From: an uncultured Candidatus Actinomarina sp.
Lineage (GTDB): Bacteria > Actinomycetota > Acidimicrobiia > Actinomarinales > Actinomarinaceae
NCBI GenBank assembly: GCA_902521955.1
Contig: CABYTP010000001.1
Coordinates: 18,097 to 82,096, forward strand
Reading direction: 5' to 3'
DNA length: 64,000 nt
Part shown: piece after piece, positions 35,415 to 38,356 of the stretch
Layout: each line of letters starts with the position of its first letter
Numbering within the stretch: the stretch's first letter is position 1
The notes under the pieces: model-generated
The model's input: the letters and a program-made list of their open reading frames with translations, nothing else
What the model was told of the DNA's origin: nothing
Database searches by the model: none
Position numbers and translations under genes: made by a program

Positions 35415-35762
35415 ATGGCGTTAAACAAAAAAGAACAAGAAATCTTGAATCAGATAGAGCAGGAGCTTTTGAAAGATGATCCAGATCTAGCAAATACTGT
35501 TAAAGAATCTACACTCTCGAAATATACTAGAACAAGAGCTGTCATCTCTTTTTTTGTTTTCTGTGTTGGGCTTCTGACCATGTTTAGTACATATATAGTA
35601 CAACCCACTATTGCTCTTGTCGGCTTTGCAGTTATGGCATTAGCAGCTTATATTTTTGTTTCCAATACTAAGGCTTTATTAAATGCAGAAAATATTAACG
35701 AGTGGAATTTTAAACAGGTTTATACCGTTCTAAGAAACAAAGATAGCTCTAGACAAAGTTAA
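35415..35762 (+). CDS. DUF3040-family membrane protein
   Basis: N-terminal KKEQEILNQIEQELLKDDPDL helix followed by two TM segments, as in the actinobacterial Rv2169c-type proteins near mraZ. Confidence 0.6.
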   Translation: MALNKKEQEILNQIEQELLKDDPDLANTVKESTLSKYTRTRAVISFFVFCVGLLTMFSTYIVQPTIALVGFAVMALAAYIFVSNTKALLNAENINEWNFKQVYTVLRNKDSSRQS

Positions 35763-35812: not shown

Positions 35813-36304
35813 TTGAAAAAGGATGCATTTACATCTAAGCAGGCATGCTATTTATCTGGCTGCACTTCACATCAATTACGTTATTGGGACAAGGTAAATC
35901 TAGTAAATCCATCTATTCAATCTTCCAAAGGTAAACCGGGAGTTCCTAAAATGTATTCATTCAGGGACATTGTAGCCTTAAGAGTTATTAAGACTCTCCT
36001 AGACAATGGAATGAGTATTCAGAGAGTCCGAAGGGCGTGGAAATATTTGTCTAAAAATGCAAACCTAACTCATCACTTGTCTGAAGTCCGTCTTGTTTCA
36101 GACGGAAGTACAATATACTCAGTTGAAGATGATGAAGTCTTTGATGCTTTAAAAAATGGTCAATTAACATTTTTTGAAACTATAGATAGTATCACTCAAG
36201 ATGTTAAAGAAGATGTATCTAAATTTGAGTTAGATAAAGAAAGATTTTTAAATTTATTGACTAAAGTAGAAGAAGATGTACTTAGTCAAGAACTTCAAGC
36301 ATAA
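35813..36304 (+). CDS. MerR-like HTH DNA-binding protein (Rv2175c-like)
   Basis: MerR HTH pattern LRYWDKVNLVNP...YSFRDIVALRVIKTLLDNGMSIQ. Confidence 0.6.
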   Translation: MKKDAFTSKQACYLSGCTSHQLRYWDKVNLVNPSIQSSKGKPGVPKMYSFRDIVALRVIKTLLDNGMSIQRVRRAWKYLSKNANLTHHLSEVRLVSDGSTIYSVEDDEVFDALKNGQLTFFETIDSITQDVKEDVSKFELDKERFLNLLTKVEEDVLSQELQA

Positions 36305-36330
36305 TTTACAATCTAAATTGATTTACCATT

Positions 36331-36843
36331 ATGGAAAAATTTCTTAGCCACCGCACATTAATTTTGAATTCAACTTTTCAGCCACTTTCTGTTGTATCAT
36401 ATCGAAGAGCAGTTTCACTTATGTTAAACAAAAAAATTCATTCGCTTGAAGACTCAAAAATAGTTTTTAAATCAGAAAAAACTAAAATAAATTTACCAAA
36501 TGTTGCCCTTTTAAATTATTTTGTTAATGCTCCATACTCTAGAAGAGTTGCTTTAAATAAAGAGAATATTTTTATTAGAGATTTTCACACTTGTCAATAT
36601 TGTGGGGGTGTAGCAGAGTCTGTTGATCACATTATTCCAAAATCAAAAGGAGGAGAACACATTTGGAGTAATGTAGTAGCTTGTTGCAAAAAATGTAATC
36701 TCATTAAAGCTGATAAAGATTTGCTAAATACAAGGCTTAAATTAATTAAAACACCAGAGCATCCTGTTGGTGCATTTTGGGTAAAAACCATAGTCGGTTC
36801 TAATCCTGATCCTTCATGGAGTAAATATCTAAAGTCAGCTTAA
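36331..36843 (+). CDS. HNH endonuclease-domain protein
   Basis: CQYCGG...DHIIPKSKGG...N...CCKKCN HNH zinc-finger motif. Confidence 0.75.
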   Translation: MEKFLSHRTLILNSTFQPLSVVSYRRAVSLMLNKKIHSLEDSKIVFKSEKTKINLPNVALLNYFVNAPYSRRVALNKENIFIRDFHTCQYCGGVAESVDHIIPKSKGGEHIWSNVVACCKKCNLIKADKDLLNTRLKLIKTPEHPVGAFWVKTIVGSNPDPSWSKYLKSA

Positions 36844-36863
36844 AAAATTTTTATCCAAAAGTG

Positions 36864-36892
36864 TTGCATTGTGGTAGATAGTGTCATATAAT
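36864..36892 (+). promoter_or_regulatory. Sigma70-like mraZ promoter: -35 TTGCAT, 17-bp spacer, -10 TATAAT
   Basis: TTGCAT at 36864-36869 and TATAAT at 36887-36892, about 37 nt upstream of the GTG start of mraZ. AAAGGCGGA Shine-Dalgarno at 36915-36923. Confidence 0.6.
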
Positions 36893-36928
36893 GTATAAAA
36901 GTGGTTCAAGGCACGAAAGGCGGATAAA

Positions 36929-37354
36929 GTGTTCCTTGGTGAGTTTCAACATACAATGGACTCTAAAGGTAGGGTAGTAATACCCTCAAAATTTAGAACA
37001 AGGCTTCAACAGGGCTGTGTGGTCACCAAGGGGCAAGATAATTGTCTTCAGATACTTACAAAAAAGACATGGGAAGAAGAAGCTTCAAAGATGGCTTCAC
37101 TTCCTTCTACAGATCGAACATCTAGACAATTAAGAAGAGCATTATTCAGTGGAGCTATTGATGTAAAAATTGATTCTGCAGGACGAGTACCAATCCCAGA
37201 AAACCTAAGAGAATATAGTGGAATTGATCTCAATGAGGAAGTAACTGTAACAGGTTCTGGACCCGTAGTTGAAGTATGGTCAACAAGAAGCTGGAAAAAA
37301 ATTCAAAAAGAAGCTGACCAATCATTTGCAAATATTAACGAGGTGAAAGAATAG
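36929..37354 (+). CDS. mraZ: Transcriptional regulator MraZ
   Basis: MFLGEFQHTMDSKGRVVIP (GTG start), with a duplicated DxxGR motif in the second half (DSAGRVPIP). Confidence 0.9.
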   Translation: MFLGEFQHTMDSKGRVVIPSKFRTRLQQGCVVTKGQDNCLQILTKKTWEEEASKMASLPSTDRTSRQLRRALFSGAIDVKIDSAGRVPIPENLREYSGIDLNEEVTVTGSGPVVEVWSTRSWKKIQKEADQSFANINEVKE

Positions 37355-37362
37355 GTTCATAG

Positions 37363-37439
37363 CCAGCTCTCTAGACAACTAAATTGGAACACCCTTACTC
37401 CGCCCAACTTTCCAATTGGTGCCAGTTCTAGAGAGCTGG
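37363..37439 (+). promoter_or_regulatory. Extended stem-loop in the mraZ-rsmH spacer (13-bp stem, internal loop, 8-bp stem, 20-nt loop)
   Basis: CCAGCTCTCTAGA (37363-75) pairs with TCTAGAGAGCTGG (37427-39). AATTGGAA (37382-89) pairs with TTCCAATT (37410-17). The structure ends 2 nt before the rsmH ATG. Confidence 0.55.
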
Positions 37440-37441
37440 GT

Positions 37442-38356
37442 ATGAATGAAAACAGGGCTGGGTATTTAGAACACGAAGGGGTGATGTTAACTGAAGTAAA
37501 TTCAGTAATTTCAAGTACACCCCCAGGTATTTTTGTAGATGCAACTTATGGATATGGTTCTCATTATAGAAATATCAAAGATAATTTTTCTGAATTAGAT
37601 CTTTTAGCTTTTGACAGAGATATTGATGTTTTAAATAATTCTAATTCTGAAATTGTTCATTTAAATTTTTCTCAAATTTCTGAATATCTTATAAACAATA
37701 ATATTGATAGGATTTCAGGGATTTTATATGATTTCGGCGTTTCTTCTCATCAATTAGATAATTATACAAGAGGTTTTTCATATTCTAATGATGGCCCTTT
37801 AGATATGAGAATGAACCAGAATGATGAAATTAACGCTTTTGAAGTCGTAAATAAATTTAATGAAATTGAAATTGCAAATATTTTATTTCAAAATTCTGGA
37901 GAAAAAAATTCACGGCGGATTGCAAGAGATATCGTAAGTTCTCGGCCTATTGAATCCACACAGGAACTAGTGAATGTTATTAAAAATTCTATAGGTAAAC
38001 AAAATCCAAAGTATATTTCTCAAACTATTAAACGTTGTTTTCAATCATTTCGAATTTATGTAAATGATGAGTTGAATGAAATACAAAAGTCTTTAAACAG
38101 TATTAAAAACTTTGTTGAGACAAACGGTGTAATTATCTGTTTAACTTATCACTCACTTGAAGATAAAATCGTTAAAAAAATTTTTACTGAATTAACCACC
38201 TCTTGTTATTGCGACGTTTCGATCCCGGTATGCACTTGTAAAAATGAACAACTATATGCATATGGTAAAAAAAAGAAAATTTATCCTTCAGGTAAAGAAA
38301 TATCAAAAAACCCAAGGTCATCATCGGCAACTCTTAGATATGTGGTTAAGTTATGA
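37442..38356 (+). CDS. rsmH: 16S rRNA (cytosine1402-N4)-methyltransferase RsmH (MraW)
   Basis: SAM-MTase motifs DATYGYGSH and GILYDFGVSS. Position after mraZ supports the call. Confidence 0.85.
   Translation: MNENRAGYLEHEGVMLTEVNSVISSTPPGIFVDATYGYGSHYRNIKDNFSELDLLAFDRDIDVLNNSNSEIVHLNFSQISEYLINNNIDRISGILYDFGVSSHQLDNYTRGFSYSNDGPLDMRMNQNDEINAFEVVNKFNEIEIANILFQNSGEKNSRRIARDIVSSRPIESTQELVNVIKNSIGKQNPKYISQTIKRCFQSFRIYVNDELNEIQKSLNSIKNFVETNGVIICLTYHSLEDKIVKKIFTELTTSCYCDVSIPVCTCKNEQLYAYGKKKKIYPSGKEISKNPRSSSATLRYVVKL

Follow-up and report, generated by a model that had tools for sequence, protein, structure and literature searches.

We report here an array of five phased DNA boxes in front of mraZ in Candidatus Actinomarina, a lineage of the OCS155 marine Actinobacteria, and we consider it very probable, judging from the sequence and its relatives, that these boxes constitute an autoregulatory operator of MraZ. 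The array was found in a contiguous stretch of 64 kb (hereafter the window) from a genome with a GC content of 31%, and it lies within positions 36857–36910 of that stretch (AAAAGTGTTGCATTGTGGTAGATAGTGTCATATAATGTATAAAAGTGGTTCAAG). It is situated on the coding strand, 25 nt upstream of the GTG start codon of mraZ, at the head of a dcw-type cluster in which mraZ is followed by rsmH (Methyltransf_5), a small ftsL-like open reading frame, a class B penicillin-binding protein (PBP) gene and murE. The mraZ gene (36929–37354, + strand) encodes a protein of 141 amino acids (aa) that belongs to PF02381 (E 2e-33) and aligns without gaps to solved MraZ structures, and it is presumed to supply both the trans-acting factor and the first regulated gene.

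Inspection of the + strand revealed five co-oriented slots, GTGT at 36861–36864 (box 1), GTGG at 36871–36874 (box 2), GTGT at 36881–36884 (box 3), ATGT at 36891–36894 (box 4) and GTGG at 36901–36904 (box 5, in the context AAAGTGG), which are spaced by exactly 10 bp throughout, with six spacer nucleotides between successive cores. A preliminary description of this DNA had placed GTG[G/T] tetramers at 36861, 36871, 36881 and 36901, and these coordinates proved exact; its designation of the slot at 36891 as degenerate was right insofar as ATGT is not a GTGK tetramer, but only the first base deviates and the TGT core is kept, and the slot corresponds in position to a box that is invariant in relatives. 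Compared with the minimum of at least three co-oriented GTG(G/T) repeats by which MraZ operators are recognized, the array comprises four GTGK tetramers and one ATGT. The arrangement GTGK-N6-GTGK-N6-GTGK occurs only once on both strands of the 64 kb and was obtained in none of 100 dinucleotide-preserving shuffles. Given that the 128 kb of strand hold 462 GTGK tetramers (frequency approximately 0.0036), the calculated number of starts at which at least three of the next four slots are filled is approximately 9e-5, and the array is the sole period-10 site in the window, on either strand, at which at least three of five slots are filled. No such array was found in the window at periods of 6–9 or 12–14, and period 11 gave a single start with three of five slots filled. 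When the core was relaxed to [GA]TG[GT], all five slots were filled, and again no second site of this kind occurs in the window. AAAGTGT at 36926–36932, over the start codon, was considered as a sixth box and discarded: it is 28 nt from box 5 and out of phase, and it is accounted for by the GTG start and a TTC Phe codon, which are common to all relatives.

The array is superimposed on a putative promoter, consisting of a −35 hexamer TTGCAT (36864–36869, + strand) and, 17 nt further on, a −10 hexamer TATAAT (36887–36892, + strand). Box 1 ends on T36864, the T with which the −35 hexamer begins, boxes 2 and 3 fall inside the promoter spacer, and the first two bases of box 4 (A36891 and T36892) are the last two of the −10 hexamer, so that the overlap of the repeats with both hexamers proposed in the preliminary description could be traced to individual bases. 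Transcription is predicted to start about 7 nt after the −10 hexamer, which would place box 5 at approximately +3 to +6 of the transcript, the whole array at approximately −39 to +6, and the bases shared by box 4 and the −10 hexamer at −8 and −7. On this evidence the array appears to be locked in register with the two promoter hexamers. Before the −35 hexamer lies an A6T5 tract with AAAA after it (36842–36860, + strand), which overlaps the stop codon of the preceding HNH gene and resembles an UP element, a function that it might serve here; a comparable A/T tract is located upstream of the −35 hexamer in all Actinomarina relatives.

To follow the array through the genus, a scan of species-representative genomes was carried out, which gave 50 mraZ loci, 42 of them Actinomarina-type, whose MraZ identities to the window protein ranged from 99% down to 66%; the nearest genomic match, at 99%, was the single-cell assembly AG-333-E10. 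From box 1 to box 5, the 43 aligned Actinomarina sequences contain no insertion or deletion. Column counts were made on the 26 unique upstream sequences, none of which departs from TG in any box. At the first base, G is present in 26, 25, 23 and 26 of the 26 sequences for boxes 1, 2, 3 and 5, respectively, and A in all 26 for box 4. The fourth base is only ever G or T in boxes 1, 2, 3 and 5, with the TGT of box 3, the GTGT of box 1 and the whole of box 5 invariant, and in box 4 an invariant ATG is followed by T (17 sequences), A (8) or G (1). Variation in the intervening positions falls on columns 36869–36870, 36875, 36877, 36879–36880 and 36894–36897. Among the promoter bases, five of the six −10 positions are invariant, and 36890 alone varies, with A in 25 of 26. 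One subclade (L022, L027–L041, L068, L069 and L097) carries ATGACAC at the fourth slot, which yields GTGTCAT-ATA-ATGACAC, an inverted repeat without mismatches that has its centre on the −10 hexamer and is homologous to window positions 36881–36897; in these genomes the direct box 4 is replaced by an inverted copy of box 3, whereas the corresponding stretch of the window is not palindromic.

Comparison was then extended to high-GC Acidimicrobiia, whose loci came from the genome scan (L043 and L044), from exact-protein look-ups (L051–L054) and from one metagenome scan (L056–L135). With alignment A1 as a profile, a protein search returned Acidimicrobiia-type MraZ only, and Mycobacterium and Rhodococcus were reached through a further search, for which an M. 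tuberculosis-like MraZ served as the query. The high-GC Acidimicrobiia share the pattern TTGACA-[A/T]-GTGG-N6-[G/A]TGG-N6-GTGG-N6-GTGG. Anchoring 49 unique high-GC sequences on the −35 hexamer showed GTGG in 48 and GTGT in one at offset +7 (homologue of box 2), [G/A]TGG in 49/49 at +17 (box 3), GTGG in 49/49 at +27 (box 4), and each base of GTGG in 44–49 of the 49 at +37 (box 5). The homologue of box 1, at offset −3, reads G[G/T/A]GT and is an optional box; in L054 it takes the fused form GTGTTGACA. The −10 hexamer of these loci, CA[T/A]AGT, occupies +23 to +28, and its last two bases open the +27 box. The window has the identical register, with the −35 hexamer starting at 36864 and boxes at 36871, 36881, 36891 and 36901, and its TTGCAT is positionally homologous to the invariant TTGACA. 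Box 4 is thus the homologue of an invariant box, whose first G was replaced by A in the AT-rich lineage, giving a perfect TATAAT. The spacers of the high-GC loci are wholly unlike those of the window, and only the cores and their phase persist from 31% to 64% GC.

Boxes in phase were also found in Mycobacterium koreense (four) and in a Rhodococcus (three), and Clostridia-type loci contain AAAGTGG-N3-AAAGTGG plus a further ATGG. At least three of five in-phase GTGK boxes at period 10 were present in 103 of 114 non-identical mraZ upstream regions and in 3 of 3378 control windows taken from those loci; the compared loci are phylogenetically related and the counts overstate the number of independent observations, and despite this the contrast is overwhelming. 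Periods of 8, 9, 11 and 12 gave at most 2 of the 114 regions. Conservation of the phase in orthologous regions had been proposed as a check of the operator, and the phase is indeed kept in all Actinomarina relatives, the high-GC Acidimicrobiia, Mycobacterium and Rhodococcus.

The boxes agree with what has been reported on MraZ in other bacteria, including the premise, given in the preliminary description, that MraZ binds tandem repeats phased at about 10 bp: the published consensus of GTG(G/T) cores with six spacer nucleotides (PMC12957436) matches the window pattern. AAAGTG[T/G] repeats are found in Mollicutes, MraZ acts as a repressor in Escherichia coli and Mycoplasma genitalium, and the term 'MraZ boxes' is in use (PMC8475190). 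The M. genitalium operator reads AAAGTGT-N3-AAAGTGT-N3-AAAGTGT-N3-AAAGTGG, with the transcription start inside a box (PMC12957436; Nat Commun 2026). Cryo-electron microscopy (cryo-EM) showed four subunits of an opened MraZ ring on the four boxes (PDB 9QLR, 9QLG and others), with K13, R15 and R86, positioned by D11 and D82, contacting TG(T/G), and mutation of the boxes led to stepwise loss of MraZ binding and repression (PMC12957436). In Bacillus subtilis, Pmra contains three GTGG[A/T]G repeats with 4-nt spacers that are needed for repression, the triple repeat is unique in the genome, R15A or R86A abolishes repression by MraZ, and both DXXXR motifs are needed (bioRxiv 10.1101/2022.02.09.479790).

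The MraZ encoded in the window carries D11, K13, R15, D82 and R86 as well as both DXXXR motifs, and it aligns from residue 1, ungapped over the DNA-binding region, to the solved chains of M. genitalium and Mycoplasma pneumoniae. That alignment begins at the start of the 141-aa protein. Many database MraZ homologues of the genus (P0002, P0004, P0005, P0011–P0013 and others) are instead 154–157 aa long, and in relatives that do not have the TAA found at window positions 36896–36898, the GTG of box 3 provides an in-frame start 48 nt upstream; the longer calls look like over-extensions of the start codon that read through the operator.

The proposal of an autoregulatory operator for the dcw cluster is supported by a Pfam-recognized MraZ heading that cluster, by the known consensus, by the conserved boxes and register and by the contact residues. 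In the mechanism that we envisage, each subunit of the MraZ oligomer would insert its beta-sheet 'cradle' (K13, R15 and R86, with D11 and D82 positioning them) into one major groove, with a single subunit for each box, all on the same face of the DNA at every helical turn, reading the TG(T/G) core and binding cooperatively. MraZ bound from approximately −39 to +6 would exclude RNA polymerase, as is expected because the array is interleaved with the −35 hexamer, the −10 hexamer and the start site. Such exclusion would repress mraZ together with the presumably co-transcribed division and cell-wall genes rsmH, ftsL, the PBP gene and murE, and thereby create a negative feedback. For a repressor, a position across the core promoter is the classic geometry.

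Besides the relatedness of the compared loci, several points weigh against reading the array as an MraZ operator. The TTGCAT-17-TATAAT pair matches the consensus of sigma-70-type housekeeping promoters, whose spacers measure 16–18 nt, at 9 of 12 positions, with only 3 of 6 in the −35 hexamer (relative to TTGACA), and the promoter scan made no call at this pair in the window or at its counterpart in the close relative L012, because the −35 hexamer matches so poorly. We retain the promoter assignment because the site is conserved and homologous to the one called in L085, TTGACA-17-CATAGT, which has 10 of 12 matches with 0 expected in shuffles. Within Actinomarina, TTGCA, TCATATAATG and positions 36899–36924 are essentially invariant as well, and consequently boxes 1 and 5 are inseparable from promoter and 5′ untranslated region (UTR) constraint; the non-box spacer bases A36876, A36878, C36885 and A36886 are also invariant. 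On the protein side, the residues F36 and F52 of the M. genitalium oligomer interface are replaced by Q36 and A52 in the window MraZ. Finally, we infer binding, repression and the transcription start in an uncultured organism, and likewise the extent of the operon, the sign of regulation and the number of subunits engaged.

Three other explanations were weighed against these data. It is improbable, in our estimation, that MraZ binds the boxes but activates transcription or acts both ways. In Mycoplasma gallisepticum, activation by overexpressed MraZ has been reported (PMC12957436), a further point against autorepression here, and a −35 hexamer as poor as the present one is typical of promoters that need help; yet the spacer, the predicted start site and the 3′ end of the −10 hexamer are all taken up by boxes, a placement that would occlude RNA polymerase rather than recruit it, the high-GC relatives combine a perfect TTGACA with the same box register, so that the promoter does not look activator-dependent, and in E. 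coli, M. genitalium and B. subtilis MraZ acts as a repressor. Somewhat less probable still is that another protein reads the repeats, namely an OmpR-family response regulator such as MtrA or the MerR-family regulator encoded two genes upstream (35813–36304). The same GTG(G/T) boxes with a 10-bp period are found with mraZ in Mollicutes and Firmicutes, an array of four to five boxes in one orientation is better suited to an oligomer that places a subunit on each box than to the dimer of a response regulator, and the cognate MraZ carries all the contact residues. MerR-type regulators recognize palindromes in promoters with spacers of 19–20 nt, whereas the window repeats are direct and its promoter spacer is 17 nt. 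In favour of such a protein, OmpR-family regulators bind tandem direct repeats about one helical turn apart, mraZ is a target of MtrA in M. tuberculosis by chromatin immunoprecipitation sequencing (ChIP-seq) (PMC9602371), and MtrA binds the mraZ promoter in Dietzia (PMC9602371), an observation that counts against the operator reading to the extent that MraZ need not act alone; binding of another protein could hold in addition to binding of MraZ.

The remaining explanation does without a dedicated operator and attributes the GTG(G/T) tetramers to chance combined with strong conservation of the promoter and 5′ UTR; it seems to us the least likely of the three. It would draw on the high conservation in Actinomarina of the whole stretch from the −35 hexamer to the start codon, non-box bases included, and on the placement of box 1 directly against the −35 hexamer, of slot 4 partly over the −10 hexamer and of box 5 within the invariant UTR. 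It leaves unexplained why, in boxes 2 and 3, TG never changes and the fourth base is restricted to K while neighbouring positions vary, and we know of no GTG requirement that sigma-70-type promoters impose on their spacer. It is at odds, too, with the same boxes in the same phase in relatives of 59–64% GC with unrelated spacers, and with the contrast between mraZ upstream regions and control windows, which is specific to period 10. We accordingly prefer the MraZ operator over the three alternatives.

A second conserved element was detected downstream of mraZ. The 87-nt spacer between mraZ and rsmH folds into a long hairpin (37357–37445, + strand), with a fold energy of −36.8 kcal/mol versus −20.3 for shuffles (z −5.5), and its basal stem encloses the ATG of rsmH (37442–37444). 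The hairpin is nearly invariant in Actinomarina and also occurs in L043–L054 and most of L056–L132; in the metagenome it was present at 56 of 70 loci, including all those of Acidimicrobiia type, and absent from non-actinobacterial loci. Covariation was assessed on 53 sequences from genomes of 31–64% GC. RNAalifold revealed compensatory changes at 16 of 22 pairs, and in a 29-pair structure 93.6% of cells pair, versus 36–52% with partners slid by 1–3 columns, with double changes in 17 pairs and with none of 500 shuffles reaching the observed covariation score. The apical loop CCCUUaCUCCGCC and the GCCAG of the 3′ internal loop are invariant in all 53 sequences. The invariant loop CCCUUACUCCGCC is followed by C-G in 43 of them, and the motif CCGCCCG is thus present in 43 of 53.

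A long hairpin in the actinobacterial mraZ–mraW (rsmH) intergenic region is the trait of the Rfam mraW motif (RF01746; gathering threshold 50 bits), and the identity of the two was examined in both directions. RF01746 did not match anywhere in the window, nor a 106-nt segment searched at E ≤ 10, and the positive controls at the analogous place scored 72 bits in Mycobacterium and 70 bits in Rhodococcus; conversely, model R1, built from the Acidimicrobiia hairpins, scored 79.9 bits on the window copy and did not match the mycobacterial or Rhodococcus motif. Rfam 15 gave no match to the hairpin in the window or in 27 hairpin-bearing relatives. The hairpin occupies the place of the mraW motif, but it is not detectably of the same family, and a literature search on an rsmH-leader hairpin found nothing. 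Its position suggests that it probably exerts translational or processing control of rsmH. The loop motif CCGCCCG equals positions 1399–1405 of 16S rRNA, around C1402, the methylation target of RsmH, within the universal 1392–1406 segment. Substrate mimicry of 16S rRNA with autoregulation by RsmH is a speculative interpretation, and coincidence is the other. Pairing of the loop UCCGCC with the mraZ Shine–Dalgarno GGCGGA was also considered, and this 6-bp complement of the window is not kept in high-GC relatives and was dismissed as coincidence.

Taken together, the array and the hairpin allow a tentative proposal, which we regard as possible but doubtful: the MraZ operator of Acidimicrobiia would be a five-slot array doubling as the core promoter, combined with a post-transcriptional layer at the rsmH hairpin. 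Its cores, at −3, +7, +17, +27 and +37 from the start of the −35 hexamer, may form one unit rather than a three-box site beside a promoter. The key −7 T of the −10 hexamer would also be the T of a box, and sigma factor and MraZ would thus be selected on the same bases. The AT-rich Actinomarina may have resolved this conflict by changing box 4 from GTGG to ATGT, gaining TATAAT, with GTGG relaxed to GTGT elsewhere.

The predicted 5′ UTR of mraZ (36899–36928, + strand), which contains a Shine–Dalgarno-like AAAGGCGGA at 36916–36924, shows a conservation of its own. Its segment 36899–36924 (AAGTGGTTCAAGGCACGAAAGGCGGA) is invariant over 26 bases in Actinomarina, even in relatives with an MraZ identity of only 66–72%, save for a substitution that a single one of the 26 unique sequences carries, and it is better conserved than the coding sequence. 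Box 5 and the Shine–Dalgarno sequence appear to account for only part of this conservation. A structured 5′ UTR was rejected as its cause, since the segment folds more weakly than shuffles (z +1.1) and had no Rfam match. In a group of high-GC loci (L051–L053, L095, L096, L102, L108, L112, L121 and L124), the mraZ 5′ UTR extends for about 80 nt after the last box, the distance from the −35 hexamer to the start codon is approximately 113–127 nt, and conserved GC-rich inverted repeats are found, for example GGGAGGCGGCGGCCTCCC and GCGCCTCC..GGAGGCG. These repeats are possibly a second leader structure, absent from Actinomarina.

Regarding the genes 5′ of mraZ, the window contains a gene with an HNH domain that ends at 36843, the MerR-family gene and a DUF3040 gene (35415–35762, + strand; E 3e-18). 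In Mycobacterium and Rhodococcus, a DUF3040-family gene lies directly 5′ of mraZ (L136, 732–1142; L137, 563–1000), and in the window the MerR-family and HNH-domain genes (35813–36843) separate the two. At two non-actinobacterial loci (L120, 521–1046; L129, 422–1009), a tRNA gene and an RNase P RNA gene (RF00010, 305–319 bits) are located immediately 5′ of mraZ.

The operator proposed here is of a known type in a new, uncultured lineage, and its presence would not surprise a specialist. What it adds is a four-to-five-box array locked to the promoter hexamers in Acidimicrobiia, with ATGT and GTGT variants in an AT-rich genus, and the indication that even a very abundant marine actinobacterium with a streamlined genome retains MraZ control of its division and cell-wall cluster. 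The comparative data suggest that a promoter-interleaved operator has been maintained through a shift from 31% to 64% GC and that Acidimicrobiia as a rule have four to five boxes instead of three. The natural box variants (GTGG, GTGT, ATGT and ATGG) furnish a ready series for testing the recognition model derived from cryo-EM. The rsmH hairpin, strongly covarying, widespread in Acidimicrobiia and not in Rfam, is in our view the more interesting lead.

Among the closest known systems is the operator of M. genitalium: like the window, it has a GTG(G/T) core, six spacer nucleotides, co-oriented repeats immediately upstream of mraZ, an A-rich 5′ flank (in the window AAAAGTGT and AAAAGTGG at the ends of the array) and a last box that reads GTGG, and the contact residues D11, K13, R15, D82 and R86 are identical in the two MraZ proteins. 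The transcription start is inside a box in M. genitalium and is predicted next to box 5 in the window. The two differ in that the window has five slots instead of four, one of them ATGT, in that its array overlays both promoter hexamers, and in that F36 and F52 of the interface are not conserved; moreover, the window comes from a walled actinobacterium that has a full dcw cluster. The B. subtilis site shares with the window the GTGG core, the 10-bp period, the location in the mraZ promoter region and an MraZ with both DXXXR motifs, whereas it has three GTGG[A/T]G boxes and the window has five, with GTGT and GTGG alternating. In E. coli, Eraso and co-workers are said to have described in 2014 three TGGGN direct repeats with 5-nt spacers at Pmra; as in the window, these would be co-oriented 10-bp repeats upstream of mraZ, and they are associated with autorepression of the dcw cluster, but their core is reportedly TGGGN rather than GTG(G/T), and GGGT/TGGG is found at offset −3 in some high-GC relatives and not in the window. 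The high-GC Acidimicrobiia (L043–L054 and L073–L132) match the window in register exactly, with the −10 hexamer ending in the first two bases of the +27 box; they use TTGACA, CA[T/A]AGT and GTGG throughout, whereas the lineage of the window uses TTGCAT, TATAAT and GTGT variants, with ATGT at +27.

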